NCBI GenBank assembly: GCA_963665715.2
Contig: CAXXPR010000002.1
Location: forward strand, 1,670,516 to 1,710,515
Direction: 5' to 3'
DNA from: Desulfatiglandales bacterium
GTDB lineage: Bacteria > Desulfobacterota > DSM-4660 > Desulfatiglandales > HGW-15
DNA length: 40,000 nt
Below the pieces are notes generated by a model. That model saw only the letters and a program-made list of their open reading frames with translations, was not told the origin of the DNA and did not search any database. This document shows positions 5,626 to 30,516 of this stretch, one piece after another (the stretch's first letter is position 1; the number at the start of each line of letters is the position of its first letter). The position numbers and the translations under genes were made by a program.

Positions 5626-5889
5626 GCAGAATCCATGTGTCAGTGAACTCCTTAAAAGGGGAGTTCGAAAAGAAGATGCTTTAAAGACCGGGTGTGCTCG
5701 AAAGGGACCATAGAGAATGAGCCGAGTCTTATGGGTTCAAATGGCCCTTCCTGATAAATACTTCTCATCACTTGGGCTTGTGTTCCCCTGGAACTGATTA
5801 CTGCCTTGGATCAGACGATCCGCGCATTACGGACCCGTATGATGCGTGTTGTGGGAGGGGGTAGCTGTGAGGCTACTCCCTATCCCGAT
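5626..5889 (+). mobile_element. 5'-truncated, degenerate remnant of the group II intron (3' end of IEP ORF, domains V-VI, 3' splice end)
   Basis: Aligns by eye to 8223-8485 of the full copy with scattered substitutions and a small indel. It ends with the same ...ggctactccctatcccgat, followed by agcgg (the AGC half of a GTT|AGC core). It begins 18 nt after the hydrolase stop codon. Confidence 0.85.
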
Positions 5890-6313: not shown

Positions 6314-6376
6314 AGCTAACGCGCTGCATAAGCGGATTGGCAAGCTTTTCGCCAATTCCGACTTGATGCAAATGTT
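6314..6376 (-). other. attC (short class), interrupted by intron copy 1; the remainder resumes at 8486
   Basis: agctaacgcgctgcataagcggattggcaagcttttcgccaattccgacttgatgcaaatgtt is nearly collinear with the intact attC at 23099-23165. Joining 6376 to 8486 restores gtt|agca. Confidence 0.75.
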
Positions 6377-8485
6377 GTGTGCCGGGCTGGTCCGGCTGCT
6401 AATTGGTGATGCGGAGATATTTATGACACAAATACTCTGCAAAGTCCATATCCAGGCTGACGGAGCCGAAGGATAGTCGGAGGCAAGGGTGTTCCAGTAA
6501 TGTGCGCCTGAAGGAAGCCTAAGACAAAAGCGTGGGTTGACGTACAGGTATGCCCCGTACCTATGAGGTAGAGGGCAGGCAGATTTGAGGCCGGGTGAAG
6601 CCGGGACGAGTCCGCAACACAGGACAAAGTCCTATATCCGTTACATGGCTGAGCCAGGTATATCTGACAATCGTGCGCTGAAAGTAGCCGAGGCTTACCC
6701 CGGGAGGTCCGCTGTGTCTCAAAGGGTCTATCGCTGTAAGCTACCGGAATATTGGGGAAACCGGTAAAAAAAAAATCCCGGCATCAAATGACCGGGCGTC
6801 CCGGTCAATGATGAGCCTGTTCTTAAGAGCGGGGCAAACAAACAGAGGGCGCAGGCGGTAGAAACCGGCGAGTGATCAAACCGCAAGGGGAGATTATCGC
6901 ACAGCGGAAGTCAGCAGAGGGCATAATAGTTCCCGAGTACAGTCGGTACTAAGGAATAAGGCCCGAACGGTGCCACCTATCGAATGGTAGGGGTAAATGA
7001 GAGCGGTTATTAGGAGACGAGTCTAATGAAATCATTGCGGCAGTGGAAACAACTTGAGTTGTACTCTATAGATCCCGAGCCCAGGGCTAAGACGGATACG
7101 AGTTCCGAAGATTTTATTGCGTCACGTTTATCTGAAAGCCCGACAGGTCAGATCCGGCTCATGGAGTCAATCTGTGAGCGGAACAACATGAGACGCGCTA
7201 TCAAGCGGGTTATTAAGAACAAGGGAGCCCCCGGTGTGGATGGTATGACTGTCCGAAAGATAGAGAAGTATTACAATAGGCACCGGGATAAAATTGAAAA
7301 GGCATTACTTGAGGGAACCTACATGCCGACCCCGGTACTGCAGAAGGAGATACCCAAACCAAATGGCGGTGTCCGCCTTCTGGGAATACCAATAGTGCTG
7401 GACAGAGTAATACAACAGGCTGTAGCCCAGATTCTGACAAGTGTCTGGGATCATACCTTTTCAGAGAACAGCTTTGGCTTCCGGCCTAAACGGTCCCAGC
7501 ATGGCGCTATGCGCAGGTACAGGGAGTTCGTGAAGGCTGGAGGAAAATATGTGATAGACATTGATCTATCCAAATTCTTCGACCGGGTAAACCATGATCG
7601 TTTATTAGCAAGGTTATCCACCCGGATAAAGGATAAGAGGGTACTAAAGCTGATTCGCAGGTTTCTTACATCCGGAGTAATGATAGATGGAATGGAAGAA
7701 CCAACAGAAGAGGGAACACCTCAGGGAGGGCCGTTATCTCCTTTACTGAGTAATATCGTTCTTGATGAACTGGATAAAGAGCTTGAAAAGCGTAGTCTTC
7801 GCTTTGTCCGATATGCTGATGACTGTGTCATATTTGTCAAAAGCAGAAAGGCGGCGAATCGAGTAATGAGCAGTATAAGCCTGTTTATAGAAAATAAACT
7901 CAGGCTTAAGGTGAACAGGGAAAAGAGCAGCATTACACTTCCATGGAAAAGTAAATATTTGGGGTTTTGTGTGACCAACTCGAAAGAGAATCCTAAAATC
8001 CGAATTCACTGGAAGTCTATTAAGCGGTTTAAAGAAAGGGTAAGAGAAATAACCTCCAGACGCCGTGGTAGAAGTATTAAACAGGTGATCTGGGAGTTAA
8101 AAGTCTATATGAACGGCTGGTGGAATTATTATGGTTTAACCGAATCCTACAACCGTTTGAAACCCCTTGACCACTGGATAAGACGACGCCTGAGGGCTAT
8201 TATCTGGAAACACTGGAAGAACCGCAGAACCCGTGTCAGTGAACTCCTTAAAAGAGGAGTTCGCAAAGAAGAAGCTGTTACTACCGGGTGTGCTCGAAAG
8301 GGGCCATGGAGAATGAGCCGAGTCTTATGGGTTCAAATGGCCCTTCCTGATAAATACTTCTCATCACTTGGGCTTGTGTTCCCATGGAACTGAATACTGC
8401 CTTGGATCAGCCGAACCGCGCATTACGGACCCGTATGATGCGTGGTGTGGGAGGGGGTAGCTGTGAGGCTACTCCCTATCCCGAT
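6377..8485 (+). mobile_element. Group II intron, class C (IIC-attC type), full-length copy 1
   Basis: 5' GTGTG. About 650 nt of structured, ORF-poor RNA, then an RT/maturase ORF. Domain V-like hairpin at about 8415-8446 with a CGC triad and a 2-nt 3' bulge. Domain VI-like stem with a bulged A 8 nt from the end; 3' end ...cccgat. Inserted directly after an attC hairpin. Confidence 0.9.
7026..8393 (+). CDS. Group II intron-encoded reverse transcriptase/maturase (no endonuclease domain)
   Basis: RT motifs: GVDGMT, RLLGIPIVLDRVIQQA, FGFRP, DIDLSKFFDRVNHD, TPQGGPLSPLLSNI, YADD in RYADDCVIFV. Maturase X-like C-terminus (GWWNYYG). At 455 aa it ends without a D/En domain, as expected for class C. 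Confidence 0.95.
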   Translation: MKSLRQWKQLELYSIDPEPRAKTDTSSEDFIASRLSESPTGQIRLMESICERNNMRRAIKRVIKNKGAPGVDGMTVRKIEKYYNRHRDKIEKALLEGTYMPTPVLQKEIPKPNGGVRLLGIPIVLDRVIQQAVAQILTSVWDHTFSENSFGFRPKRSQHGAMRRYREFVKAGGKYVIDIDLSKFFDRVNHDRLLARLSTRIKDKRVLKLIRRFLTSGVMIDGMEEPTEEGTPQGGPLSPLLSNIVLDELDKELEKRSLRFVRYADDCVIFVKSRKAANRVMSSISLFIENKLRLKVNREKSSITLPWKSKYLGFCVTNSKENPKIRIHWKSIKRFKERVREITSRRRGRSIKQVIWELKVYMNGWWNYYGLTESYNRLKPLDHWIRRRLRAIIWKHWKNRRTRVSELLKRGVRKEEAVTTGCARKGPWRMSRVLWVQMALPDKYFSSLGLVFPWN

Positions 8486-8703
8486 AGCAAAATAGGTTAT
8501 TTATGACACTTAAACTTAAATTAAAAATAAAAAAACAAGAGCATAATAAGTACGATGGTTCATTATCTTTTTATCATAGTAATGGAGCTGGTTGTTCTGT
8601 CATTACTATAATGGAAAACAGCCCTCATGATACTATTAATACGCTTATTGATGGACTCATGAATGTCACCCCTAATTTTATGCAAAGAGAAATTGATGAA
8701 TAT

Positions 8704-8967
8704 TTAAAGGATGCGCGTAAACCGTATCAATGGCATATTTTTTTTAGATGGTGGAGTTATTTCAGGCGCAGGTTTAGCGCTCCATCCTAACTCTTTTGCC
8801 CAAGGCTGTAGAGTTTCGGAATCAATGCGTTGAATATCAAATGTGCATTCATGATCGTCTCCAGGGAAAGCTTGCGCTACTTTACGATAAGGAATAACGA
8901 TATCATTTTCCTTGCATTCAATAAGGTTTTTCTCTAAGGCTTTACGATGTGTTATTGTTTCATCCAT
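8704..8967 (-). CDS. Cassette ORF, hypothetical (87 aa)
   Basis: Preceded, in minus orientation, by GTTAGCAAATAAGAGGAGATAACCATCATG (core plus strong SD). The 3' part overlaps a plus-strand ORF and its true end is uncertain. Confidence 0.45.
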   Translation of the reverse strand: MDETITHRKALEKNLIECKENDIVIPYRKVAQAFPGDDHECTFDIQRIDSETLQPWAKELGWSAKPAPEITPPSKKNMPLIRFTRIL

Positions 8968-8987
8968 GATGGTTATCTCCTCTTATT

Positions 8988-9118
8988 TGCTAACGTTTAA
9001 GTTAAGGAGCCCGGCGGTTTAATGGTGATTAGCCTCATGCTCCTAAGATGCTTGTTAATGTTGACTGTGCTCCGCCCGGCAAGATAGTAGCTGGGTCCCC
9101 TTGAACTTTTTGTTATAA
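8988..9118 (-). other. attC (long class)
   Basis: Bounded by tgctaac and gttataa. The arms aagttaaggagcccggcgg and ccgcccggcaagatagtagctgggtccccttgaactt are largely complementary. Paralogous to 13072-13200. Confidence 0.7.
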
Positions 9119-9122
9119 AAAA

Positions 9123-9467
9123 TTACTCCTCGGTTTTAATTGATAGTATATTTTTAATTTCTTTTAATGTCTTTTTGTCTGTACGAAAATTGATTTTAAA
9201 AATAACGTCCTTTTCAAGGATTAATACTAAATTGTTTTCTGTGAGATCATATTCTCTTATACCTACTCCGCCATCGTATTCTTTTCCATCATACCATTCA
9301 ACTGTTGGTCTGAAAGGCGGAATCTCGTATTGAGCGCTGATCATAAGGTATATTGATTGGTCCTCATTAGGATTAGGATATACTTCGGAATCAAAATCTA
9401 TCTGAACATACTCTCCATCACCTGCTTCAGTATATTCCACTTTCTTTGCTTCAAATTTTATTTCCAT
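9123..9467 (-). CDS. Cassette ORF, hypothetical acidic protein (114 aa)
   Basis: Fills the cassette exactly, with its stop 5 nt before the TTATAAC core and its start 15 nt after a GTTATAA core. No family recognised. Confidence 0.6.
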   Translation of the reverse strand: MEIKFEAKKVEYTEAGDGEYVQIDFDSEVYPNPNEDQSIYLMISAQYEIPPFRPTVEWYDGKEYDGGVGIREYDLTENNLVLILEKDVIFKINFRTDKKTLKEIKNILSIKTEE

Positions 9468-9481
9468 TAATTACCTGGTTT

Positions 9482-9568
9482 TTATAACGGCCAAGCTCAC
9501 CAGCCCCGCCATGATATTTTATATCAAGCAAGGAACCCACCGGGGTCTGGTGTAGCTGTTTGTTAGCG
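9482..9568 (-). other. attC (87 bp)
   Basis: Bounded by ttataac and gttagcg, with internal complementary arms caccagccccg / cggggtctggtg. The stop codon of the upstream cassette ORF lies inside the GCTAAC core. Confidence 0.65.
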
Positions 9569-10174
9569 GTTGTTTTCTTGACTCATTTCTATAATAGCAT
9601 TGTATCTTGAAAGATATTGTGAGTCGCTTTCAGGATCGATATCGCACCAATTATTTTGTATTACCATATCATTGACACTAGAAAAAGATGGACTAACAAC
9701 ATATTTCTTTTCGTCTGGATCTTTCATAAGTGATAAATCAGCCAGCCAAACATAAGATTCAAAAATGCCGTCAGTAGTTTCATTTTCAGCTATATATGAT
9801 AATTTTTCAGTATCTTCTTCAAAGAACTTTCTTATAAAATAAACACCCCTTGGACCACATTTAATGCCTGCAAGTGAAACTTGAGTGTTGTTTTCTAAAA
9901 TGAAGATGCCATTATCTGTTATAGATTTGACAGCAAATATTTTTTTGTTCCAAGGCGTTGGAGGGGTAGGATATTTACTGTTTATTTTGTCCATCATTTT
10001 AAACCCCTCATTCAAAGAATCAATTTCTTTTTGGGTAGCGTCCCTTACAACAATTTCACCTTTCGCATTTTTATATGCTGTTTCAGAAAATGATATAGAT
10101 TTTTTGTCATTATTATCACAGCCAAGTAACGTAATAATAATTAATATCGTTGGTATTGATTTACACAATTTCAT
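9563..10174 (-). CDS. Cassette ORF: predicted lipoprotein (203 aa)
   Basis: Signal peptide with lipobox IIITLLGC|D. GTTAGCGGTATAAGGGAATG (core plus SD) is at the start. The segment ITDNGIFILENNTQVSLAGIKCGP weakly recalls SNase-like OB-fold proteins; this is not asserted. Confidence 0.65.
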   Translation of the reverse strand: MKLCKSIPTILIIITLLGCDNNDKKSISFSETAYKNAKGEIVVRDATQKEIDSLNEGFKMMDKINSKYPTPPTPWNKKIFAVKSITDNGIFILENNTQVSLAGIKCGPRGVYFIRKFFEEDTEKLSYIAENETTDGIFESYVWLADLSLMKDPDEKKYVVSPSFSSVNDMVIQNNWCDIDPESDSQYLSRYNAIIEMSQENNR

Positions 10175-10191
10175 TCCCTTATACCGCTAAC

Positions 10192-12009
10192 GACGCTGTC
10201 GAAAAACCCACTTTATAAAAAAATATTAATCCTGGGAAATGACAGCCTGAAAAAAATATATTTATTGTAAAAATAAAATGATTAAAAAAGAAAAACTAAA
10301 ATCCGGTAAGAAAAATCGATCTACAGGCCTATATGGCCTTCATTCGGCCTTTTCTATGTACCTTGTATTGCGTAGCTGGTGCCATAGTTGCATATTTTCT
10401 CGATATTGTGAACTATACAATACAGCATCCACTGAATATTCACCTTTACCTTTCCTCTCAGGGTAAATCTGTCCATTCTCTTATTGGCTCTGATATTTCC
10501 AAAAACCGGCTCAACAATCCCCAGGCGCTTACTGTATGTCTTCCGACCTTCTGGTGTATCTATCTTGTTCCTCATTTCATCCAGAACACTTCCAGGTCGG
10601 TTCCCATCTATTATGGTTACTTGCCTCGATACTGTTTTATCAGGTTTTCGTAAACATTTTGCTCTAAGTTCACAGTTTCCACATGCTTTCTTTGTCCCCT
10701 GGTAAATTATCCCCTTATTACCTTTTTTATCTGCCCAGTTTCTGCTTCGGACGTAAAGGCTGTGACCTGCAGGGCAGATAAGTTTGTCCTTTTCATCATC
10801 ATAACTAAAATCTTCAACTGAAAAATATTTTTTACTCTTATCCGTTTTATTCTTATCAATAGGCCTGCGATATCGGCCTGCATCTGCAAACCTTATATCT
10901 CTCTTTCTGAACTGCTGGTCAGGGACATAAGCATCAACTTCATACTCTTTGCATGCTTTCAGGTTATTAATGCTGTAGTATCCTGTGTCTGCACTTACAG
11001 TCTTATTTTTTAAAGGGTCTTCAATACCAACTGCCTCGAGATTTTGCTTTGCGCCTTCCAGCATAGATTCCATTAGGCTGGTGTCATCACCTTTACCATA
11101 GGCCTCTGCATTAACTATTACCTGATGCTTTTCATCTACCATGGCATTGGCGTTATATCCCTGCAATACTCCATGTGATGTGGCTGCCATTTTTGCAGAC
11201 TCATTATCTGTTACATTACTCTGAATCTCTTTGCCTGTAGAACCTATCTTTGGTTTATTGCTTGAAAGAAATTTATCTATTCTGTCTGCTTTTTGCTTCA
11301 GACCCTTTATTCTTTTTTCTCTCTTTTGTTTTTCTGAAGTACTATTTTTGCTCTCTATTTTATCGGCAGATTGATGTTCTGCTATGGCCTCTTTAACTTT
11401 TTTCTCAAGCTTTTCTTTTTTCTTCTGAAGATCGCTGAAAGTCCCACTCCATTCCTTTGATGCATTTGAGGAGGCCTTCATTCCATCAAGACTGAAATGA
11501 GTGTTACCAAGTAACCCTTCTTCTTCACATATTAATAAGACTTTAGTGAAAAGGTTTCCAACTGTTTCATCCATTGAATTTACAAATGATGCTATCGTGC
11601 TGTGATCAGGCTTTTGACAGCAGGAGAGGGCCATGAAGGTGATATTTTCTTTACACGCTCTTTCAAGTGGTCTGGTAGAAAACATTCCTCGTGAATAGCC
11701 GAACAAAATTATCTTTAATAAAACCTTAGGATCAATTGCCTTACGACCAGTGTCATCATTCCTGTATCGTTTATCAAAGAATCTCAGGTCAAGCCTTTCT
11801 TCAATGATGTAATGTATTGCATACTCAAGGGTGCCAGGTTCTAACTGGTCCTCAAGAGATAATGGTATCATCCTTAATTGGTCATAGTCGGTTGGGGTGT
11901 AGCGTGCCATCAAGTAAGCTCCGTGTGATGAAGAGGTTAATTGCAATTTAGCACACTGTGTTATATCTTCAAGTATTATTAAGTCCTTTTTTACTTTTTC
12001 GACACCGTC
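10192..12009 (-). mobile_element. IS1182-family insertion sequence (copy A) inserted in an attC core
   Basis: 15-bp terminal inverted repeats GACGCTGTCGAAAAA (10192-10206) and GACGGTGTCGAAAAA (reverse complement of 11995-12009). Flanks read gctAAC|IS|AACgtg, an apparent 3-bp duplication. Single transposase ORF. Confidence 0.8.
10354..11910 (-). CDS. IS1182-family (IS5/DDE-type) transposase
   Basis: The N-terminus MARYTPTDYDQ...LEPGTLEY...RYRNDDTGRKAIDPKVLLKIILFGYSRG...R.LERACKENI.FMAL is characteristic of IS1182-family transposases as I recall them. The track start at 11946 probably over-extends. Confidence 0.9.
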   Translation of the reverse strand: MARYTPTDYDQLRMIPLSLEDQLEPGTLEYAIHYIIEERLDLRFFDKRYRNDDTGRKAIDPKVLLKIILFGYSRGMFSTRPLERACKENITFMALSCCQKPDHSTIASFVNSMDETVGNLFTKVLLICEEEGLLGNTHFSLDGMKASSNASKEWSGTFSDLQKKKEKLEKKVKEAIAEHQSADKIESKNSTSEKQKREKRIKGLKQKADRIDKFLSSNKPKIGSTGKEIQSNVTDNESAKMAATSHGVLQGYNANAMVDEKHQVIVNAEAYGKGDDTSLMESMLEGAKQNLEAVGIEDPLKNKTVSADTGYYSINNLKACKEYEVDAYVPDQQFRKRDIRFADAGRYRRPIDKNKTDKSKKYFSVEDFSYDDEKDKLICPAGHSLYVRSRNWADKKGNKGIIYQGTKKACGNCELRAKCLRKPDKTVSRQVTIIDGNRPGSVLDEMRNKIDTPEGRKTYSKRLGIVEPVFGNIRANKRMDRFTLRGKVKVNIQWMLYCIVHNIEKICNYGTSYAIQGT

Positions 12010-12071
12010 AACGTGTTGATAACCAGCCTGGCGAGCTTTTTGCCAGGTCTGAGTTTATTAAATTGTTGTGT
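12010..12071 (-). other. attC (short class), separated from its GTTAGC core (10186-10191) by IS copy A
   Basis: aacgtgttgataaccagcctggcgagctttttgccaggtctgagtttattaaattgttgtgt has a central palindrome cctggc..gccagg, the same architecture as 23099-23165. Confidence 0.6.
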
Positions 12072-12074
12072 AAT

Positions 12075-13049
12075 TTATTTAAATTTATCCCCTTTGAGGG
12101 AGCATAGCTCTATACACCTATCTAGCCAAGATTGATACCAATACCAGCAACCTGCGACATCAACTCCATAACCTTTTCCTGGTTTTTTTGCATCCTCAGA
12201 TTTCCACATTTCAACATGTTCAGGATAAACTCGGAATTTTGGAAAACCAGCACCCCTCACTGCAGCAGCAATATCACTCGGCCTATATTTCTTTCTCTCA
12301 ACTTCCTTTTTTACCCAGTATTCTTTATCAATTTTTTTAGCTAGATCTGATTTAGGGTCTATAAATTCAACAACTTTATCTGCTTGGCCGGGCCTATTAA
12401 CAAGCTTCTTTTTAAAGAGAAGACGGTAGGAAAAATTGGGGCTATTATACTCATCATGGTTTAATGCATCATCAAATTCAACAATGTATGCTTTAAGTCG
12501 CTTTGGAATATCAGCTTCTAACTTTTTACCTTGTAATTGTTCCTCTGATAGTTCTATGAATTGCAATGAATAACTTAAATATTCGTCCAATGAGTGTCTA
12601 GTCCCGAAATATTTTTTAATATAATAGTTGTAATTTAAAATGCATGCTTGATACCTACCACTTAAATATTCATCAAGTGATAATGTCATTTGGTGCTCAA
12701 TTTCATGGCGAAGACCGATTAGAAATCTTAGATTATTTGCTGTATTTTTATCAATAGGCGATAAAATATCATTTAGGCACCTTTCAAGTTCCCAATATTT
12801 ATATGCGCCTTTTTTTGTTCTATCGAAAAACCTTCGTTTCCCATGTTGTTGAAAATACCTGTACTCAACTCCATTTGAGCGAAAATATGCATGTAGTAGA
12901 TAAGTCCATGCTATTATCATTAATACAATAAATGTTTCTGATTTAAACTTTATGAGTGGATCATTAAATATTTTTACTGCTGATAAAGAAGCTTCCTTAG
13001 ACTTAGCGAGCAGTTCATCCTTAATAGATCCAATTCTACGCTTTGTCAT
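12075..13049 (-). CDS. Cassette ORF: DUF3644-like / HEPN-like (Rx4H) protein, candidate RNase or abortive-infection-type protein
   Basis: 324 aa from ATG 13049, after GTTGTGTAATAAATAAAGAGGATAAAGTAATG (core plus SD). The N-terminus SLSAVKIFNDPLIKFKSETFIVLMIIAWTYLLHAY and the motif FLIGLRHEIEH (R-x4-H) resemble DUF3644/Abi-like HEPN proteins. From memory, not searched. Confidence 0.55.
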   Translation of the reverse strand: MTKRRIGSIKDELLAKSKEASLSAVKIFNDPLIKFKSETFIVLMIIAWTYLLHAYFRSNGVEYRYFQQHGKRRFFDRTKKGAYKYWELERCLNDILSPIDKNTANNLRFLIGLRHEIEHQMTLSLDEYLSGRYQACILNYNYYIKKYFGTRHSLDEYLSYSLQFIELSEEQLQGKKLEADIPKRLKAYIVEFDDALNHDEYNSPNFSYRLLFKKKLVNRPGQADKVVEFIDPKSDLAKKIDKEYWVKKEVERKKYRPSDIAAAVRGAGFPKFRVYPEHVEMWKSEDAKKPGKGYGVDVAGCWYWYQSWLDRCIELCSLKGDKFK

Positions 13050-13071
13050 TACTTTATCCTCTTTATTTATT

Positions 13072-13200
13072 ACACAACGTGAAGTTAAGGAGCCTAGCGG
13101 TTTAATGGCAACCAACTTCACACACCTAAGATGCTTATAATATTGATTTTGTTCCGCACGGCAAGATAGTAGCTAGGTCCCCTTGAACTTATGGTTAAAT
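13072..13200 (-). other. attC (long class)
   Basis: Bounded by acacaac and gttaaat. Contains aagttaaggagcctagcgg...cggcaagatagtagctaggtccccttgaactt, collinear with 8988-9118. Confidence 0.7.
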
Positions 13201-13221
13201 GTTTAGATGGTATATTTCCCT

Positions 13222-13635
13222 CTACTTCTTTAGTTGCACTAAATTGATTTTATATTTTATCTTCTCAAGATTTTTTATTTCTAATGTCAGACTATTAATG
13301 CAAGCACAAGCTGCAACTGAACGCTTGAAAAAGCCATCGTCTGGATTGGTGGCCAAATATTCTATATTGAGTACGTCCTCTTTAATGTCAATATTACACT
13401 TTGTTATTTTATAGGCACAATTTATTTGTACGAACGCCTCAATCTTTAGAGTGTTAGGAGTCGTCCATTGAACCGTAGATACACCATAATTTGAAAATTC
13501 ATAAGGATTCTCATCAAAACGTTCACAGGATGATGAATCAAAACTAAAGTCATACTTATTATGGCTAGTGCTACAGGACAATAGGGTTGTCATCAAAAGA
13601 GATATTAAGATCACAGCTAGTTTTATTTTATTCAT
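13222..13635 (-). CDS. Cassette ORF: predicted lipoprotein (about 137 aa)
   Basis: Signal peptide with lipobox TTLLSC|S. ATG at 13635 (track uses GTG at 13644). Several Cys residues. No family recognised. Confidence 0.6.
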   Translation of the reverse strand: MNKIKLAVILISLLMTTLLSCSTSHNKYDFSFDSSSCERFDENPYEFSNYGVSTVQWTTPNTLKIEAFVQINCAYKITKCNIDIKEDVLNIEYLATNPDDGFFKRSVAACACINSLTLEIKNLEKIKYKINLVQLKK

Positions 13636-13644
13636 ATTTTTCAC

Positions 13645-13760
13645 ATTTAACGCTTACGCTAACATGCAAGCGGTGCAGCTACTAAAAGATTATTGAAGCA
13701 CCGAATATCACAAACCTAAAAAGGTTGATTCGGCAAGATAGTAGCTTGTCATTGTTGAGC
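13645..13760 (-). other. attC (long class)
   Basis: Low-coordinate core atttaac (or gctaac at 13658-13663); high-coordinate core gttgagc. Carries the conserved ttcggcaagatagtagc block. The upstream ORF stop lies inside the site. Confidence 0.6.
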
Positions 13761-14336
13761 GTGTGGTTCGGTGTCTCTTCTATTATCTACTGGTATACGT
13801 TCCTTACCATCGCGCCCATTTATCCATTCAATTGCATCTTCAGCTTCTTCTGCCACATACCACCAGCCAGGACAAACCTCTTTATCTTTCGCTTTTAACT
13901 CAAGTAAAGTAGGAAGAGCCTGCCTAAATTTCATTTGGCCAACTGCATAACATGACCAAAATCTCACAACTGGTGAGGTATCATTCAGGCTTTTTAGCAA
14001 AGTGGTTTCTGCCAATTTTCTATGTTTATTTTTTTTTGATGGCTCTATAATGCCAATTCCTTCAGCCGCCTGCCCTCGAACATATTCATTAATATCTGAA
14101 TTAGCCAATAGGTTAATTAATATACCCAAGGTTGAATCACTATTCTCGACCCAAGAAAGAGCATAAGTTGCAGATTCTTTGTTATGTATTTCATTTCCAT
14201 TTAAAGCAATTTTCGCCAATACGTCGATATATTTTTGTGAAAGAGCATTAGTAGCAATCGATTTTGCGGCCTCAAATGCCTCAACAGCATTTCCAAACTC
14301 AATATCATTTATTAATTTAGAAATATTTTCTATCAT
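13749..14336 (-). CDS. Cassette ORF: HEAT/PBS-lyase-like repeat protein
   Basis: 195 aa from ATG 14336, after GTTCGGTGTAAGGAAACAATG. Repeated helical units with ...VRGQAAEGIG... and ...SPVVRFWSCYAVGQM... are typical of HEAT-like repeats. The track N-terminal extension reads through the attC. Confidence 0.6.
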   Translation of the reverse strand: MIENISKLINDIEFGNAVEAFEAAKSIATNALSQKYIDVLAKIALNGNEIHNKESATYALSWVENSDSTLGILINLLANSDINEYVRGQAAEGIGIIEPSKKNKHRKLAETTLLKSLNDTSPVVRFWSCYAVGQMKFRQALPTLLELKAKDKEVCPGWWYVAEEAEDAIEWINGRDGKERIPVDNRRDTEPHAQQ

Positions 14337-14347
14337 TGTTTCCTTAC

Positions 14348-14477
14348 ACCGAACGATTGCGATAAGGAGTTTGCGGGTTAATGGCACCGATGAACTATTA
14401 AGTATGAAGGCCATTGAAACCTTTAAATCCCAATCGGCAAGAAAAACCAGCAAATCACCTTGATTGCTTGGTTAGCA
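14348..14477 (-). other. attC (long class)
   Basis: Bounded by accgaac and gttagca. Highly similar along its length to 20017-20146, sharing gcgataaggagtttgcgggttaatgg...caatcggcaagaaaaaccagcaaatc.ccttgattgct. Confidence 0.7.
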
Positions 14478-15180
14478 CGTTTTGGAGATACTGTTTACGT
14501 GCCTCATAATCTCCCATATTTAAGGGGAACGGTTCTCTACATTTTGAACATATTGCTCTATGTGTCGGACCTTTTTTAAAAATCATCCGATACAATTTTA
14601 CTGGTATCCATGGCAAATCTATTCTTTCTAATTTATGCTTTCCAATATTACCACATTTTTGGCACACACTGAGTTGGAAAAAACCCTTAGGTAGCTCTAC
14701 GCTGATTAGTTTAATAAATTGAGAAGCAACATTTGTTATATATTGGTCAATGTTATTTGCTGATAGCCCAGTATTGAAATAGGATGTTTCTCTTTCTTTT
14801 ATACTCCATATGTCATCGTTAAGTTCATCCCAGATACTATAGATGGGTTCATAATCGGATTTTGAATAGAGGCTATCAAGAGTAGCTACACCATCTTGAG
14901 GTGAGATCTCACCTTTAATAATTTCACGGCAGATATGTGCAGCATAGTTCAAAAAACTCTTTTCCTCGGATGGTAACTCCAGTTTAAGGTCAATAATGCT
15001 TTGCTTAAAATAGTATTTAATTTCTTCTAAGTCAGGATGTTTATCCATATCAAGACCTGCAAGGATTGCAACATTCTCTGATTCAACTCCATTGTTAAGC
15101 ATATCTATTGCCCATTCAGAGTAGTCCTTTGGCTGTGCTGCTCCTACCGCTATTTTTCCTGCAAGGTAATTGAATTCCAT
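14455..15180 (-). CDS. Cassette ORF, hypothetical with C-terminal Cys4 zinc-ribbon-like motif (241 aa)
   Basis: CQKCG...(29 aa)...CSKC near the C-terminus. A GTTAGC core lies 14 nt before the ATG. The last 7 codons run through the attC core. Confidence 0.6.
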   Translation of the reverse strand: MEFNYLAGKIAVGAAQPKDYSEWAIDMLNNGVESENVAILAGLDMDKHPDLEEIKYYFKQSIIDLKLELPSEEKSFLNYAAHICREIIKGEISPQDGVATLDSLYSKSDYEPIYSIWDELNDDIWSIKERETSYFNTGLSANNIDQYITNVASQFIKLISVELPKGFFQLSVCQKCGNIGKHKLERIDLPWIPVKLYRMIFKKGPTHRAICSKCREPFPLNMGDYEARKQYLQNVLTKQSR

Positions 15181-15200
15181 AGAAATCTCATAGTGCTAAC

Positions 15201-17107
15201 GAGGCTGTCGAAAAACCCCGTTCAAAAACCATATTATTCTGAGTTAAAGTTCTACAGCCGGATAAAAATAATATTTAAAATTAAAACCGATTTTTTTGTG
15301 AGATAAGAAATCATGAAGCAAGGTTTATAAAAAGGCGCTAAAACCCTTGTATAGGGCCTTTCAGGCCTCTTTTCCTACGCTCCCTGAGATGAAACCATTC
15401 CATAATTGCATATTTTTTCAATATTGTGAACTATGCAGTATAGCATCCACTGTATATTTACCTTAACTTTGCCTCTTAAGGTAAATCTATTCATTTTTTT
15501 ACATGCCCTTATATTACCAAACACCGGTTCAACTATCCCTAACCGTTTGCTGTAAGTCTTTCGGCCTTCAGGTGTATCTATCTTATTCTTCATTTCATCC
15601 TTGAGACTGCCAGGTCTGTTTCTATCCAGTATGGTTACCTGTCTTGCTTCTGTTTTGTCAGGTTTGCGCAAACATTTTGCTCTCAGTTCGCAAGCTCCAC
15701 ACGCTTTCTTCGTCCCCTGGTAAATTATCCCCTTATACCCATCTTTAGTTAAATAGTTTCGGCTTCTGACATACATGCTATGCCCGGCAGGACAGACTAA
15801 TTTATCCGTTTCATCATTATAGTTGAAATCTTCAACTGTAAAATATTTTTTCCTCTTATCAGTCTTTCTCTTATCAACAGGCCTGCGGTGTCTCTCTGCA
15901 TCTGCAAATCTTATATCTCTTTTTCTGAACTTTGGGTCAGGTATGTAAGCATCTACTTCATATTCTTTGCATGCTTTAAGATTCTTTGCACTGAAGTATG
16001 CAGTGTCAGCACTTACTGTTTTATCTTTTAACGGCTCTTCAATTCCGATAGCTTCAAGGTTTTCCTTTGCTCCATTAAGCATCGGTTCCATAAGGCTGCC
16101 GTCATCTCCTTTTCCGAATACCTCAGCGTTTACTATCACCTGATGCATTTCATCTACCACAACATTAGCGTTGAATCCCTGCTGAACTCCGTGAGATGTT
16201 GTCATCTTGGCAGATTCATTGTCTGTTATGTTACTCTGTACCTCTTTGCCCTGACTGCCTATCCTTGGCTCACTCTCAGATAAAAACTTCTTTATTTTTT
16301 CAGATGCCTGTTCAAGCTTCTTTATCTTTGCTTCCTGTCTCTTCTCCCATGAGATATCTTTCTTCTTACCTGATACTTTGTCCGTTGCTCTATGTTCTTT
16401 GATTGCCTCATCAATCTTCCGCTCAAGGGCATCCTGCTTCTTTTTTAAATCATTCAGCTTTCCGCTCCATTCCTTTGAAGCATTAGAGGATGTCTTCATT
16501 CCGTCAAGACTGAAGTGTGTACCGCCAAGAAGATCACATGCTTCACAGGTCATCAATACTTCTTTAAAAAGATCTTTTGTCTCTTTACCTATCGATGAAA
16601 CAAAGGATGCTATTGTGCTGTGATCCGGAGTCTGAAAATCTGCCAGCAGCATAAACTTAACGTTTTCCCTGCATGCCTGTTCTATAGGACGTGATGACGT
16701 CATACCTCGCGAGTAACCGAGAAGTATTATTTTTAGAAGTGTTTTGGGGTGTATTGCCTTGCGACCGGTATTATCGTTTTTATATCTTTCGTTGAAGGTA
16801 CTCAGATCAAACTTTTCTATTACAAAGTCTATTGTATGTTCAAGTGTGCCTGGTTCCAGTTCTTTGTCATGTGATACTATAACCAGCTTGCTCTGGTTTC
16901 TGTTCGTGGGTTTGTAGCGTGCCATCCGGAGCTCCTCTTAAGGGAAGTTTTTATCAAATGGATGGCAAATATATAGCATAGTACGTGATAAGTGTAAATT
17001 GATTAAATTAAAATAAAGCTATTAAAAAAGGCCTAAATTAAATCTAGTAATGAGTCTATTGTTTTCTCAAGTGAATGGATGGATCAGGGTACTTTTTCGA
17101 CAGCCTC
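15201..17107 (-). mobile_element. IS1182-family insertion sequence (copy B, diverged from copy A) inserted in an attC core
   Basis: Perfect 15-bp terminal inverted repeats GAGGCTGTCGAAAAA (15201-15215 and reverse complement of 17093-17107). Flanks read gctAAC|IS|AACgta, the same position and orientation in the core as copy A. Confidence 0.8.
15375..16925 (-). CDS. IS1182-family (IS5/DDE-type) transposase
   Basis: 516 aa, collinear with the 10354-11910 protein (MARYKPT..., shared C-terminus KVNIQWMLYCIVHNIEKICNYG) but with many substitutions. Confidence 0.9.
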   Translation of the reverse strand: MARYKPTNRNQSKLVIVSHDKELEPGTLEHTIDFVIEKFDLSTFNERYKNDNTGRKAIHPKTLLKIILLGYSRGMTSSRPIEQACRENVKFMLLADFQTPDHSTIASFVSSIGKETKDLFKEVLMTCEACDLLGGTHFSLDGMKTSSNASKEWSGKLNDLKKKQDALERKIDEAIKEHRATDKVSGKKKDISWEKRQEAKIKKLEQASEKIKKFLSESEPRIGSQGKEVQSNITDNESAKMTTSHGVQQGFNANVVVDEMHQVIVNAEVFGKGDDGSLMEPMLNGAKENLEAIGIEEPLKDKTVSADTAYFSAKNLKACKEYEVDAYIPDPKFRKRDIRFADAERHRRPVDKRKTDKRKKYFTVEDFNYNDETDKLVCPAGHSMYVRSRNYLTKDGYKGIIYQGTKKACGACELRAKCLRKPDKTEARQVTILDRNRPGSLKDEMKNKIDTPEGRKTYSKRLGIVEPVFGNIRACKKMNRFTLRGKVKVNIQWMLYCIVHNIEKICNYGMVSSQGA

Positions 17108-17218
17108 AACGTAGAATTAACGAGCGTGCGATGCCTGCCAATAAAGGCTCTTAGAAGATCGAACGTTGCGAACCTTTAAAGACCGATTTGGCAAGATAGT
17201 AAGCACGTCACGTTGAAT
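17108..17218 (-). other. attC (long class), separated from its GTTAGC core (15195-15200) by IS copy B
   Basis: Begins aacgtagaattaacgagcg, contains tttggcaagatagtaagc, and ends gttgaat just after the stop of ORF 17233-17463. Confidence 0.6.
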
Positions 17219-17232
17219 GAATGGTTGGGAGC

Positions 17233-17463
17233 CTAATACTCCTCCTCTTCATCATCAGTAATATATTCCCACATTTCATTTTGATGCAACCAGATTGGAT
17301 CAGCGTTTCTTCTTATGAATTCATCAACATCCATTCCATCAATTGTCGGCGGGCGTTTTACTCGCTTCTGTTTTCCATTTATGAATATGGTTTCATATTC
17401 TTTTTTCCGCTTCTTCTTTGCAGCTTTTTCGGCGGCAGTAAGTTTTCGTTTACGTTTTGCCAT
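17233..17463 (-). CDS. Cassette ORF, small protein with Lys/Arg-rich N-terminus and acidic tail (76 aa)
   Basis: ATG at 17463 (MAKRKRKLTAAEKAAKKKRKK...DDEEEEY). The track start at 17508 reads into the attC. No family recognised. Confidence 0.5.
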   Translation of the reverse strand: MAKRKRKLTAAEKAAKKKRKKEYETIFINGKQKRVKRPPTIDGMDVDEFIRRNADPIWLHQNEMWEYITDDEEEEY

Positions 17464-17483
17464 TATATTTATTCTCTGTTCAC

Positions 17484-17607
17484 TCCCAACGCCCAAAATA
17501 ACAGGCATGCGGTGCTTACCTTTAAAGTTTATTTAATTTGAAAACTTTGCGAACCACGAAAGATCGATTCGGCAAGATAGTAGCATGTCCTTGTTGATTT
17601 AAATGTT
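17484..17607 (-). other. attC (long class), interrupted at its high-coordinate core by intron copy 2
   Basis: ctcccaac...ttcggcaagatagtagcatgtccttgttgatttaaatgtt|intron. Joining 17607 to 19718 gives gtt|atttt. Confidence 0.7.
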
Positions 17608-19717
17608 GTGTGCCGGGCTGGTCCGGCTGCTAATTGGTGATGCGGAGATATTTATGACACAAATACTCTGCAAAGTCCATATCCAGGCTGACGGAGCCGA
17701 AGGATAGTCGGAGGCAAGGGTGTTCCAGTAATGTGCGCCTGAAGGAAGCCTAAGACAAAAGCGTGGGTTGACGTACAGGTATGCCCCGTACCTATGAGGT
17801 AGAGGGCAGGCAGATTTGAGGCCGGGTGAAGCCGGGACGAGTCCGCAACACAGGACAAAGTCCTATATCCGTTACATGGCTGAGCCAGGTATATCTGACA
17901 ATCGTGCGCTGAAAGTAGCCGAGGCTTACCCCGGGAGGTCCGCTGTGTCTCAAAGGGTCTATCGCTGTAAGCTACCGGAATATTGGGGAAACCGGTAAAA
18001 AAAAAAATCCCGGCATCAAATGACCGGGCGTCCCGGTCAATGATGAGCCTGTTCTTAAGAGCGGGGCAAACAAACAGAGGGCGCAGGCGGTAGAAACCGG
18101 CGAGTGATCAAACCGCAAGGGGAGATTATCGCACAGCGGAAGTCAGCAGAGGGCATAATAGTTCCCGAGTACAGTCGGTACTAAGGAATAAGGCCCGAAC
18201 GGTGCCACCTATCGAATGGTAGGGGTAAATGAGAGCGGTTATTAGGAGACGAGTCTAATGAAATCATTGCGGCAGTGGAAACAACTTGAGTTGTACTCTA
18301 TAGATCCCGAGCCCAGGGCTAAGACGGATACGAGTTCCGAAGATTTTATTGCGTCACGTTTATCTGAAAGCCCGACAGGTCAGATCCGGCTCATGGAGTC
18401 AATCTGTGAGCGGAACAACATGAGACGCGCTATCAAGCGGGTTATTAAGAACAAGGGAGCCCCCGGTGTGGATGGTATGACTGTCCGAAAGATAGAGAAG
18501 TATTACAATAGGCACCGGGATAAAATTGAAAAGGCATTACTTGAGGGAACCTACATGCCGACCCCGGTACTGCAGAAGGAGATACCCAAACCAAATGGCG
18601 GTGTCCGCCTTCTGGGAATACCAATAGTGCTGGACAGAGTAATACAACAGGCTGTAGCCCAGATTCTGACAAGTGTCTGGGATCATACCTTTTCAGAGAA
18701 CAGCTTTGGCTTCCGGCCTAAACGGTCCCAGCATGGCGCTATGCGCAGGTACAGGGAGTTCGTGAAGGCTGGAGGAAAATATGTGATAGACATTGATCTA
18801 TCCAAATTCTTCGACCGGGTAAACCATGATCGTTTATTAGCAAGGTTATCCACCCGGATAAAGGATAAGAGGGTACTAAAGCTGATTCGCAGGTTTCTTA
18901 CATCCGGAGTAATGATAGATGGAATGGAAGAACCAACAGAAGAGGGAACACCTCAGGGAGGGCCGTTATCTCCTTTACTGAGTAATATCGTTCTTGATGA
19001 ACTGGATAAAGAGCTTGAAAAGCGTAGTCTTCGCTTTGTCCGATATGCTGATGACTGTGTCATATTTGTCAAAAGCAGAAAGGCGGCGAATCGAGTAATG
19101 AGCAGTATAAGCCTGTTTATAGAAAATAAACTCAGGCTTAAGGTGAACAGGGAAAAGAGCAGCATTACACTTCCATGGAAAAGTAAATATTTGGGGTTTT
19201 GTGTGACCAACTCGAAAGAGAATCCTAAAATCCGAATTCACTGGAAGTCTATTAAGCGGTTTAAAGAAAGGGTAAGAGAAATAACCTCCAGACGCCGTGG
19301 TAGAAGTATTAAACAGGTGATCTGGGAGTTAAAAGTCTATATGAACGGCTGGTGGAATTATTATGGTTTAACCGAATCCTACAACCGTTTGAAACCCCTT
19401 GACCACTGGATAAGACGACGCCTGAGGGCTATTATCTGGAAACACTGGAAGAACCGCAGAACCCGTGTCAGTGAACTCCTTAAAAGAGGAGTTCGCAAAG
19501 AAGAAGCTGTTACTACCGGGTGTGCTCGAAAGGGGCCATGGAGAATGAGCCGAGTCTTATGGGTTCAAATGGCCCTTCCTGATAAATACTTCTCATCACT
19601 TGGGCTTGTGTTCCCATGGAACTGAATACTGCCTTGGATCAGCCGAACCGCGCATTACGGACCCGTATGATGCGTGGTGTGGGAGGGGGTAGCTGTGAGG
19701 CTACTCCCTATCCCGAT
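17608..19717 (+). mobile_element. Group II intron, class C (IIC-attC type), full-length copy 2
   Basis: All ORF translations are identical to copy 1, and the coordinate offset is constant except for one extra A in a poly-A run (A11 at 17997-18007 versus A10 at 6766-6775). Same 5' exon heptamer aaatgtt. Confidence 0.9.
18258..19625 (+). CDS. Group II intron-encoded reverse transcriptase/maturase (identical to 7026-8393)
   Basis: The 455-aa translation is identical to copy 1. Confidence 0.95.
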   Translation: MKSLRQWKQLELYSIDPEPRAKTDTSSEDFIASRLSESPTGQIRLMESICERNNMRRAIKRVIKNKGAPGVDGMTVRKIEKYYNRHRDKIEKALLEGTYMPTPVLQKEIPKPNGGVRLLGIPIVLDRVIQQAVAQILTSVWDHTFSENSFGFRPKRSQHGAMRRYREFVKAGGKYVIDIDLSKFFDRVNHDRLLARLSTRIKDKRVLKLIRRFLTSGVMIDGMEEPTEEGTPQGGPLSPLLSNIVLDELDKELEKRSLRFVRYADDCVIFVKSRKAANRVMSSISLFIENKLRLKVNREKSSITLPWKSKYLGFCVTNSKENPKIRIHWKSIKRFKERVREITSRRRGRSIKQVIWELKVYMNGWWNYYGLTESYNRLKPLDHWIRRRLRAIIWKHWKNRRTRVSELLKRGVRKEEAVTTGCARKGPWRMSRVLWVQMALPDKYFSSLGLVFPWN

Positions 19718-20003
19718 ATTTTCGTCTTTTCGTCTTTTTATTGTATTTTGATATTAAATAATTTTCTCTGAGTTTAATGAATATTTTAACAACAAAACCG
19801 ATAATTGAAACAATGAACATGATACAAACAGTTATTAAAACTCCGATATAATTCATTTCAACGCCATGGCCTGTTTTATAATAATCTAAGCCGTGACCAG
19901 TTATTACTTTATGAATGAGTAACAAAACGAAACCTAGAAACCCAATGGTAATTGAGCATCCAAAAATTACACTGAAGAATTTATTTAGTTTACCTTTTGC
20001 CAT
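19701..20003 (-). CDS. Cassette ORF: small membrane protein; C-terminus altered by intron insertion
   Basis: Two hydrophobic helices and a basic tail. The last 5 codons plus the stop (YRDRE*) are encoded by the reverse complement of the intron 3' end. Without the intron the frame would stop at T|AA within the core. Confidence 0.55.
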   Translation of the reverse strand: MAKGKLNKFFSVIFGCSITIGFLGFVLLLIHKVITGHGLDYYKTGHGVEMNYIGVLITVCIMFIVSIIGFVVKIFIKLRENYLISKYNKKTKRRKYRDRE

Positions 20004-20016
20004 TTATCCATTCGAA

Positions 20017-20146
20017 AAATAACGTTTGCGATAAGGAGTTTGCGGGTTAATGGTGCCGATGAACGATTAAGTAAAAAGCGCCTTAAAGCTGTTGAATTCC
20101 AATCGGCAAGAAAAACCAGCAAATCCCCTTGATTGCTTTGTTAGCA
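20017..20146 (-). other. attC (long class)
   Basis: Bounded by aaataac and gttagca. Close paralogue of 14348-14477. Confidence 0.7.
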
Positions 20147-20154
20147 TTAAATGA

Positions 20155-20454
20155 CTATTCTACTGAACATATGAACTCAAACTCGATATCAGGATATTCA
20201 GCCAACAAACTAAACATTGAATCAAATTCCTGTTTATGTTCATTATTATGCGAGCGCCATATGGCATTGGTATCTCCAAGTTTTAGAGTAACCGCACTTG
20301 CCAATTGAATTGATATTAAATTATTTCCGTTCGCATTAGAAAATATTTGATTTAAATTATCTGAAGAGCTTTTAATTGCTATCTGTTCCTGATTAATTGC
20401 CATTTTCATTTGAGCAATGACCTTCGATGTAACTTTTAAAAAAACTGTTTCCAT
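20155..20454 (-). CDS. Cassette ORF, hypothetical (99 aa)
   Basis: GTTAGCATCCGAAAGGAACTATATTAATG (core plus SD) at the start; the stop is 8 nt before the attC core. No family recognised. Confidence 0.5.
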   Translation of the reverse strand: METVFLKVTSKVIAQMKMAINQEQIAIKSSSDNLNQIFSNANGNNLISIQLASAVTLKLGDTNAIWRSHNNEHKQEFDSMFSLLAEYPDIEFEFICSVE

Positions 20455-20474
20455 TAATATAGTTCCTTTCGGAT

Positions 20475-20545
20475 GCTAACGGTGAGGATGACCGGCGAAC
20501 GGGTTAAAAAAGAAAAAAGGTGTTGCACCCCAGTGGCCGTTATCC
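20475..20545 (-). other. Possible attC or attC fragment at the IS91-like element boundary
   Basis: gctaac...gttatcc cores at the right spacing, but by eye the arms pair poorly. The site may be disrupted by the adjacent IS91-like element. Confidence 0.3.
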
Positions 20546-20802
20546 CACATTAAATTGTTTGCCTCCATAGTCCAGTTCGACCGGTCCATCCATTTGTTGG
20601 ACGGCACTCTTGGTACTATGGATTTTTCTGACACCCTATTTTTGTGCCCCTACAATTAGAAAACTACACTTCTGAACAATGATTCCGAAGATACAAGGGG
20701 TTGTGATCCTAAAATGTACATTGAATACGTTTGAAAATGGTTGTTATTTTGGCTTAAAGGTATACTTCACCATAGAAGCTATATATTATCATTTAAATTT
20801 TA

Positions 20803-21993
20803 TCAAGCAGCCATCCTAAGAGGTGGTGGCTTGGCGTATCTTATTACCTTTTCTGTTACAAGCAGTGATCCGCATTCAGGACAAAAGATCCCTTCCCATT
20901 CCGGAAACATACTTTGCAAAAGTTCCTGTGCATGGGGTAGATCAGTGAGCGGTTCATATGGCTTCTGGCCCAGTTGTAAACGGGCTGTGTTAAGCTTTTT
21001 AATACAGTTGGGATGAAACAGCCCGTATGCTCGAACCATATGTGTCCCTTTTTCCGGAACATGATTCAGTATCCTGTGTATGAATGTCCCGGCATTAAGA
21101 ACAAAGCTCCGCTTCTCATGTTTATCACGATGGGCATATGCTATTCTTATGTTTTCCCCATCGTATGACATGATCCGCTTTTCGGAGATCGGACCTCTTC
21201 TGATATACCTTCCGACATACTTGAATACGCCATTGGAGTGTTCATAGGGCGGTTCTACCCTCACATTCCATTTCTTTCTGCCAAGTTTGTTCAGGAGATT
21301 AAGACACTGCTGTTTGCTCTTATCCGGTGGAATAGTAAAAACCTTGTTATCCGGCTTTTGATTTCCTGTTTTCGTTAAGCTGTTAAAAGCTTCACGAAGA
21401 TAGGCAAGGAACTTGCCTTTGAACTTTGCTGACAATACCCGGCTTGGTATAAGAAATCCATCGTCCACGCTTTTCCATTTGCCGTCAGCTCCTAAACCTC
21501 CGCCTGTTACAACAAAGTGCAGGTGACAGTGATTCTGCATCTCATCGCCCCAGCTCTGGAATACCCCGATAACTCCGGGATAGCCTCCCAGCCATCTGGC
21601 ATCTCCAAGCAGTTCCCTTAACGCATGCCAGGCTGCCATAAACATGATGTTTGTAAACAGCTTCCGATTATACAGCCATATGAAATGAAGGTCATGGCTT
21701 ATTGTAAATGTAACGTGATGGTATTTGCAGTTAAGGGCTTGTTTCTTGCGACGCTGCAGCCAGACCTCGGTTTCTGTAGAACCGCACTGGGGACAGCTTC
21801 TGTGTTTGCATGAGTTGTTGAGGATGATGCTGTAATGCCCCTTGGGGCATTTATCAATATGGTAGCCCTGTGCTCGGGTGCGACAGGTCATTATGTTCCA
21901 TGATGCCTTCCTCTCCCGCTCACTCAATTTATGATGCTTGCGGTAGGCTTCATAATGGTCATTAAATATCTTCTGAACTATCCCCGCTTTCAT
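20803..21993 (-). CDS. IS91-family (HUH/Y2 rolling-circle) transposase
   Basis: N-terminal Zn-binding Cys cluster (CKHRSCPQCG), HUH-like HCHLHFVVTGGG, and a double-Tyr motif FKYVGRYIRRGPISEKRI typical of IS91/ISCR transposases. Confidence 0.85.
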   Translation of the reverse strand: MKAGIVQKIFNDHYEAYRKHHKLSERERKASWNIMTCRTRAQGYHIDKCPKGHYSIILNNSCKHRSCPQCGSTETEVWLQRRKKQALNCKYHHVTFTISHDLHFIWLYNRKLFTNIMFMAAWHALRELLGDARWLGGYPGVIGVFQSWGDEMQNHCHLHFVVTGGGLGADGKWKSVDDGFLIPSRVLSAKFKGKFLAYLREAFNSLTKTGNQKPDNKVFTIPPDKSKQQCLNLLNKLGRKKWNVRVEPPYEHSNGVFKYVGRYIRRGPISEKRIMSYDGENIRIAYAHRDKHEKRSFVLNAGTFIHRILNHVPEKGTHMVRAYGLFHPNCIKKLNTARLQLGQKPYEPLTDLPHAQELLQSMFPEWEGIFCPECGSLLVTEKVIRYAKPPPLRMAA

Positions 21994-23049: not shown

Positions 23050-23098
23050 GACTTTTTCCTACATGTGAGTTCTATAGTTTCCTTACTTTTCAATTCAC

Positions 23099-30445: not shown

Positions 30446-30516
30446 TATGTTTATAAACCTGCTTCCATCTGTGTATGGCCGATTATTTTTTACGGATTAA
30501 AACAGGAGGGCATATT

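Follow-up and report, generated by a model that had tools for sequence, protein, structure and literature searches.

Two groups of mobile elements that target attC, the recombination site of integron gene cassettes, have been named in the literature: the IS1111-attC insertion sequences (IS) and the group IIC-attC introns, both of which enter attC close to its 5′ end and lie antisense to the cassettes (PMC3001079; PMC11187229; PMC11089894). Here we describe two elements of a different family, IS-A and IS-B, which are inserted in the cassette array of a Desulfatiglandales bacterium. The array lies within a stretch of 40,000 nucleotides (nt) of contig CAXXPR010000002.1 (assembly GCA_963665715.2, positions 1,670,516 to 1,710,515), referred to below as the window; all coordinates without further qualification are those of the window. 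IS-A and IS-B are members of the IS1182 family and each interrupts an attC at its other end, in the R′ core. Judging from sequence comparisons across many genomes, we consider it very probable that both belong to a deep and widespread subgroup of this family (the "IS1182-attC group"), which transposes specifically into the attC R′ core.

IS-A is 1818 bp long and occupies positions 10192-12009 on the reverse (-) strand; its ends, 10192-10206 and 11995-12009, form terminal inverted repeats (GACGCTGTCGAAAAA and GACGGTGTCGAAAAA). IS-B (15201-17107, -) is 1907 bp long and bears perfect 15-bp inverted repeats, GAGGCTGTCGAAAAA. The transposase of IS-A comprises 518 amino acids (aa) when read from an ATG (10354-11910, -; the mechanically called open reading frame (ORF) extends to 11946, with a TTG start), and that of IS-B comprises 516 aa (15375-16925, -). 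Both proteins carry DUF772 and DDE_Tnp_1_6, and they score 310 (IS-A) and 311.6 bits (IS-B) against the NCBIfam IS1182 equivalog NF033551, for which the cut-off is 270. The elements display the IS1182 architecture throughout: an N-terminal DUF772 and a C-terminal DDE_Tnp_1_6 domain in a single intact ORF, 15-bp inverted repeats and a length in the range of 1.3-2 kb. An alignment of transposase relatives points to a candidate DDE triad, formed by the invariant residues D141, D307 and E466, together with a Y-x2-R...E motif. Because the two transposases are only 70% identical, IS-A and IS-B are independent elements and not the result of a duplication. The original prediction for this locus had placed both elements in the IS1182 family on the basis of the letters alone, had given their coordinates with flanks gctAAC/IS/AAC (a slash at a junction marks the IS boundary), and had read their diverged transposases as a sign of independent insertions. 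The domain content and NF033551 scores, the base-by-base inspection of the ends and the protein identity agree with it on each of these points.

The two elements share a single insertion point. On the forward (+) strand, the junctions of IS-A read ...ccGCTAAC/GACGCTGTCGAAAAA...TTTTTCGACACCGTC/AACgtgttgataacc and those of IS-B read ...gtGCTAAC/GAGGCTGTCGAAAAA...TTTTTCGACAGCCTC/AACgtagaattaacg. In cassette orientation, each IS lies between the ...C-GTT that ends the upstream attC and the intact GTTAGCG (IS-A) or GTTAGCA (IS-B) of the downstream cassette. The first copy of the flanking triplet of IS-A (AAC on the + strand, GTT cassette-wise) is at 10189-10191, within the intact R′ core (gctAAC at 10186-10191), and the second is the GTT at 12010-12012, which terminates the upstream attC. 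For IS-B, the corresponding copies are found at 15198-15200 (gctAAC at 15195-15200) and at 17108-17110. The attC interrupted at its R′ end by IS-A (attC-A) spans 12010-12071 (-), and the one interrupted by IS-B, of ~123 nt, spans 17108-17230 (-). As had been proposed, in both cases the downstream cassette retains an intact GTTAGC and the IS is oriented as the cassettes are. The conserved GTT of R′ is the triplet that holds the crossover point of the integron integrase, IntI. Chance can be excluded as the reason for the shared insertion point on two sequence counts: there are 14 R′ positions in the 6.48-Mb contig, and the junction recurs in 65 independent relatives.

The origin of the flanking triplets is apparent from empty sites. 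A metagenome collection queried with the last 22 nt of attC-A returned one contig, L082, with an uninterrupted attC that is identical to attC-A at 59 of 60 positions, contains a single GTT (...GGTTATCAACAC-GTT-ATTTTAAAAG) and has unrelated neighbour genes; similarity to the window ends immediately past the GTT, which is where IS-A starts. At L023, one of the relative loci described below, a paralogous junction is likewise uninterrupted with a single GTT (CGCCGGTAAGGGGCGGC-GTT-ATCGGGGGATCGCAGTAGCGG...), and further along, at ~134 nt, it occurs again, here interrupted by an IS with GTT on both sides. With a single GTT in each empty site, the predicted 3-bp GTT/AAC duplication is borne out, and comparison of these junctions indicates that the duplication is 3 bp long and target-derived, with IS termini GAG... 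and ...CTC. Two other ways of parsing the junctions were rejected. A 4-bp duplication of CGTT fails because the IS ends in C and itself supplies the C before the right-hand GTT; moreover, sites that have T, A or G at position -4 keep ...CTC/GTT. A GTT that forms part of the IS, with no duplication at all, is at odds with inverted insertions flanked by AAC on both sides, with a subclade of relatives flanked by other triplets, and with the single GTT of the empty sites.

Relatives were gathered by similarity of the transposase protein only (36-68% identity) from 185,579 species genomes; this yielded 79 loci, to which two Pseudoalteromonas chromids were added. In most loci the IS ends were placed through a conserved inverted-repeat core, GAGNCTGT(C/A)GAAAAA. 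After removal of duplicates, 65 distinct insertions read cGTT/IS/GTTRRRY in transposase orientation, with both junctions visible in 51. Six more are inverted at the same R′ position, reading AAC/IS/AAC (L039, L045, L048, L068, L070 and L077), and a handful have other 3-bp flanks (GCT on both sides in L037, TTT on both sides in L040; also L038, L041, L042 and L046). The hosts are Desulfobacterota, Spirochaetota, Phycisphaerae, Caldisericota, Nevskiales (Hydrocarboniphaga, Nevskia), Burkholderiales and two cultured Pseudoalteromonas strains; the Pseudoalteromonas junction, ggCGTT/GAGGCTGTAGAAT...CTACAGGCTC/GTTATAT, lies inside an attC array. A neighbour-joining tree of 52 transposases shows GTT targeting across the whole sampled diversity, down to ~36-40% identity, and the non-GTT elements as one nested subclade. 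The plasmid collection held no close relatives (best 39-41% identity, on Pseudoalteromonas and Catenovulum replicons), and therefore clinical class 1 integrons gave no test case. Searches for identical proteins, made with the transposase and with three proteins of flanking cassettes in order to find other strains and empty sites, returned no matches.

That the target sites are indeed attC emerges from their folding. The sites were reconstituted by removing the IS and one GTT from each relative locus. Most of them fold as canonical attC bottom-strand hairpins, with RYYYAAC-G-N6-TCACC on one side, a stem with bulged bases, and GTG-N6-T-GTTRRRY on the other. The R″ partner was chosen by energy density and later by covariance model; choice by fewest mismatches or lowest total energy often gave the wrong AAC. 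In an alignment of 12 foreign sites, the R-box and L-box pairs belong to the consensus and six pairs covary, L-box pairs among them. A covariance model, R1, was built from 12 foreign target sites only and applied without filters to the entire window; its E-values are rough. It returned 15 matches on the + strand, 14 of them within 6314-23165 and including both IS-interrupted attC sites (12006-12071 for IS-A, 17104-17230 for IS-B); the remaining window matches are weak, at 1027-1056 (+, E = 7) and at three places on the - strand. Among the loci of the close clade, all 55 matches with E <= 1 lie on the strand opposite the transposase, so that the array and the transposase gene are co-oriented; in this clade, the transposase gene always reads in cassette direction. 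Among the distant loci, 44 of 50 matches share the orientation of the transposase in this sense. At least 19 insertions outside the R1 training set, IS-A and IS-B among them, have an attC match that ends exactly 4 nt into the IS, and in the inverted L077 the match begins exactly at the IS end. The attC sites range in length from 52 to ~140 nt, and intI homologues lie within 3 kb of L076, L071, L050, L018, L004 and L058. The original prediction had raised an unrecognised attC-targeting IS lineage as one possibility. It is supported by 71 R′-triplet insertions in unrelated genomes, the attC covariance model, two empty sites and the transposase tree.

In the window itself, the 14 R1 matches within 6314-23165 delineate a cassette array (cassettes on -, attC bottom strands on +) directly left of an integron integrase gene, intI (23804-24835, +; TIGR02249 469 bits, cut-off 265; Pfam Phage_integrase and SAM_4). 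Imperfect palindromes of the form RYYYAAC...GTTRRRY (+ strand) recur between the array ORFs, and all 14 attC sites have RYYYAAC-G at the left end and (T/G)GTTRRRY at the right end on that strand; the R′ side always carries C-GTT and the R″ side T-GTT or G-GTT. The cassettes and both IS transposase genes are all on the - strand, whereas intI is on the + strand, such that the integrase adjoins the array and is divergent from the cassettes. An adjoining divergent tyrosine recombinase and 14 co-oriented attC sites with R″-L″...L′-R′ hairpin architecture identify the locus as a chromosomal integron read on the reverse strand, with intI and, to its left, ORFs on the - strand.

How the elements find attC is less directly visible. 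Across the targets, linear conservation is seen at -4 (C, 1.1 bits), in the GTT, at +4 (A or G), at +5 (G or T) and in the L′ box (-15 to -12). One could therefore suppose that the IS merely prefers a short motif, CGTT or CGTTRK, and that its link to attC arises from the abundance of the motif combined with survival of insertions in a gene-poor, neutral array. The -4 C, the GTT and the +4 and +5 positions are indeed the most conserved, and all 14 attC sites of the window offer C-GTT at R′. However, a 28-nt weight matrix holds ~15 bits, and the threshold that keeps 75% of true sites admits 17 background positions in 250,828; the corresponding density is ~68 per Mb on each strand, which for a genome of 6 Mb means ~800 sites, as against tens of attC. 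With some 800 equal sites predicted, nearly all 65 events are nevertheless at attC R′, with single-nucleotide precision, and selection would be unable to place an insertion to the nucleotide. Furthermore, end-paired hairpins form much more readily from the target flanks than from CGTTRK control sites (p = 1e-13). We thus regard preference for a short motif as an improbable account of the distribution.

Instead, linear sequence seems too poor in information for the exclusivity observed, and some structural feature of attC probably contributes to recognition. The second suggestion of the original prediction, that the IS exploits the folded single-stranded substrate of IntI, would accord with such a read-out, although the 3-bp duplication points to strand transfer into a duplex. 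Because attC length varies from 52 to ~140 nt, the two arms of the site could be read together only when folded. The C at -4 may explain why R′ serves the IS, while ...TGTT at R″ serves the group IIC-attC introns of this array.

Head-to-tail IS copies with only GTT between them, present in L001, L031, L056 and L068, bear on the same question. At L056 the tandem junction reads ...CTACAGCCTC-GTT-GAGGCTGTAGAAAAA. Such arrangements in L001, L031 and L056 would be explained if an IS end plus GTT sufficed as a target, in line with a short motif, but tandem copies are equally expected if an upstream attC and its GTT are recognised. As far as the junctions go, IS-GTT-IS is consistent either with repeated targeting of the CGTT junction as it is regenerated or with dimers and circle junctions of the IS; the former would be a case of each insertion recreating a target.

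Two single loci are recorded here for their unusual flanks. L049 (~1787-1891) has GTT on both sides but T at -4, along with a weak + strand R1 match (E = 0.046), and its IS may have entered an attC at R″ rather than at R′. At L019 (~2850-2895), in the Desulfosarcinaceae metagenome-assembled genome contig CAXXYD010000002.1, the left flank consists, in place of an attC, of the 3′ terminus of a group IIC-type intron (...GGGAGGGAGGGGCCGTGAGGTCTCTTCCTATCCCGAtt/IS), and the triplets on the two sides of the IS differ (ATT versus GTT). Either recombination between IS copies or insertion beside an intron-occupied site may have given rise to this arrangement.

The position of the insertions at the IntI crossover triplet also invites explanations in which the integron machinery is responsible. 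In one, IntI itself placed the elements by capturing an IS circle at G/TT as it would a gene cassette, leaving GTT on both sides. Cassette boundaries fall at G/TT, IntI-inserted DNA would accordingly be flanked by GTT...GTT, and the orientation of the IS matches that of the cassettes. But a gene cassette has its own 3′ attC, and there is no credible R1 match inside IS-A or IS-B, only two weak ones in IS-B on the wrong strand (E = 0.7 and 6.7). Relatives with identical termini duplicate GCT or TTT away from attC, the six inverted insertions are not expected from IntI, and the junction predicted for an IS circle would put the GTT in a hairpin loop and not in an R box. We find placement by IntI scarcely credible. 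In the other, a protein that occupies attC, be it IntI or a host factor, recruits the transposase, which does not itself read the DNA. The overlap of the insertion point with the crossover triplet is compatible with this, and there is a precedent in transposons that use bound recombination proteins or sites, such as the IS1202 family beside XerC sites in dif/pdif (PMC10132070). Yet the hosts belong to several phyla, their IntI proteins are divergent (33-56% identity to the window IntI where present), and most loci are without intI within 3 kb. We regard recruitment as very unlikely. As for the orientation bias, it could stem either from mechanism or from selection.

For an attC-specific IS1182 subgroup, transposition can be pictured as follows. 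The junctions show that the transposase inserts with a 3-bp stagger around the GTT of 5′-C/GTT/RRRY-3′ (slashes here bounding the triplet), duplicating it, such that attC...GTT is left upstream and an intact GTTRRRY remains with the downstream cassette. Recognition would take place via the -4 C, the GTT, the L′ box and an additional property of the palindrome or of the folded attC. The 3-bp duplication implies strand transfer into duplex DNA. More speculatively, since the IS starts with GAGNC, the upstream attC might regain GTTGAGN, which is near to GTTRRRY. R1 still scores both IS-interrupted attC sites; the upstream cassette would presumably stay excisable and the array recombinogenic. It is also conceivable that IntI could mobilise an IS and its downstream cassette jointly, the pair being bracketed by attC. 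Taken to its furthest extent, this would mean a DDE lineage that reads folded or cruciform attC by a substrate logic similar to that of IntI, rebuilds a usable R′, and then passes from one integron to another at the head of a cassette mobilised by IntI; we put this extended scheme forward tentatively and hold it to be doubtful as a whole.

Several observations weigh against attC-specific transposition or the recognition proposed for it. L052, a copy of a multicopy element in the Hydrocarboniphaga chromosome NZ_OZ257125.1 (at ~3.10 Mb; ...cccaccCGTT/IS/GTTgctgtg), has no attC match nearby, and long open frames run across the empty site. This copy, apparently inserted at a non-attC CGTT, is what a short motif would predict; it is probably an off-target insertion keeping only the CGTT core, and its flanks suggest that CGTT is the minimal requirement. 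A few other target sites (L023, L063) are not canonical attC. In the window, the regenerated R′ is imperfect, reading GTTGACG at IS-A and GTTGAGG at IS-B. The support consists throughout of static insertions, from which transposition is deduced, and survivorship, that is, the loss of insertions elsewhere, could inflate the apparent specificity. Finally, the 3-bp duplication speaks for integration into duplex DNA, so that recognition of a folded form is something we only infer.

The remaining features of the window concern the array and its surroundings. The cassette ORF downstream of IS-A (9563-10174, -) retains the R′ core GTTAGCG and that downstream of IS-B (14455-15180, -) retains GTTAGCA, and the cassette whose attC is interrupted by IS-A carries a DUF3644 gene (12075-13121, -) that adjoins the attC at 12010-12071. 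Within the array, an IS91-family transposase gene (Y2_Tnp and Zn_Tnp_IS91; 20803-21993, -) lies between the attC sites at 20474-20602 and 22240-22371. Just past intI, a degenerate purine-rich tandem repeat (25480-25671; units AGAAGTCAG and GGAAAGCAG) is located 3′ of the ORF at 24847-25458. Outside the integron, a c-di-GMP-I riboswitch (30353-30442, +; Rfam RF01051, 74.6 bits) is situated just 5′ of a 437-aa ORF (30475-31788).

The lineage is apparently undescribed. Within an established IS family it forms a new subgroup with site specificity, one that has converged on a class of targets already known. Searches of the full-text literature turned up no connection of IS1182 with attC; ISfinder, TnCentral and most subscription journals lay outside this search, and a prior description is possible. 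The two recognised attC-hunting lineages, IS1111-attC (via a seekRNA) and the group IIC-attC introns, both locate attC by means of RNA. A third and independent lineage of the DDE type would show that attC can be recognised with nucleotide precision by protein only, and at the opposite end and strand of the site. Members of the lineage occur widely among the chromosomal integrons of environmental bacteria (Desulfobacterota, Spirochaetota, Gamma- and Betaproteobacteria, among others) and also in cultured Pseudoalteromonas, and effects on cassettes and arrays are therefore to be expected: on expression, through polar insertion upstream of a cassette; on array rearrangement; on the occurrence of attC clusters without an integrase; and on integron annotation. 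The elements also offer a tractable system in which to study how a DDE transposase achieves a structure- or palindrome-dependent choice of target, and the junction attC-GTT/GAGNCTGT[C/A]GAAAAA provides a simple metagenome marker both for the IS and for new integrons.

Among described systems, the classical IS1182 elements (ISPpu20, ISPmo1, ISPse1) share with IS-A and IS-B membership of NF033551, the one-ORF layout, the terminal inverted repeats and a size of 1.3-2 kb. Their transposases are only 25-28% identical to the lineage of IS-A and IS-B, however, and no attC specificity has been reported for them in the literature searched. The duplication made by ISPse1 is 4 bp (PMC3281130). Among DDE IS, the closest parallel in concept is the IS1202 family (ISAjo2 group), in which a DDE-type IS lies at a fixed distance and orientation from the XerC/D site of dif/pdif (PMC10132070); it differs in IS family, in recombination system (Xer/dif) and in position.

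The group IIC-attC introns (e.g. S.ma.I2) resemble the IS in being a monophyletic attC-specific lineage of a broader class of mobile elements. They are retroelements, which insert into the bottom strand after ...TGTT at R″ and lie antisense, in contrast to the IS, which uses C-GTT at R′, the sense strand and DNA transposition. Both kinds of element can be compared in the window, which contains two group II introns that are ~99% identical to each other (6377-8485 and 17608-19717, +; reverse transcriptase with maturase, 455 aa; Rfam group-II-D1D4) and a 3′ fragment of a third copy (5637-5889, +; partial). Both full introns follow ...AAATGTT in the attC sites at 6314-6380 and 17484-17611, where they occupy the R″ end in antisense orientation; this is the classic group IIC-attC arrangement. 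A single array has in this way been struck by two attC-homing lineages, IS and introns, at opposite ends of attC.

The IS1111-attC elements (ISPa21, ISPst6, ISKpn4; IS110/IS1111) provide a counterpart in behaviour, being a monophyletic subgroup within a larger IS family, with a fixed position and orientation in attC (PMC3001079; PMC11187229). The attC-specific insertion of these DEDD elements of the IS110 family had been cited in the original prediction as the known case, and the literature agrees (PMC3001079; PMC11187229). IS-A and IS-B do not belong to this group, as Pfam and NCBIfam give only DDE models of IS1182/IS5 type for them. Whereas IS1111-attC elements have a DEDD transposase with a seekRNA and subterminal repeats, and make no such duplication, IS-A and IS-B have a DDE transposase, terminal inverted repeats and a 3-bp GTT duplication. 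The two groups also approach attC from opposite sides: IS1111-attC elements insert near its 5′ (R″) end in antisense orientation, and IS-A and IS-B at the crossover triplet of its 3′ (R′) end in sense orientation.

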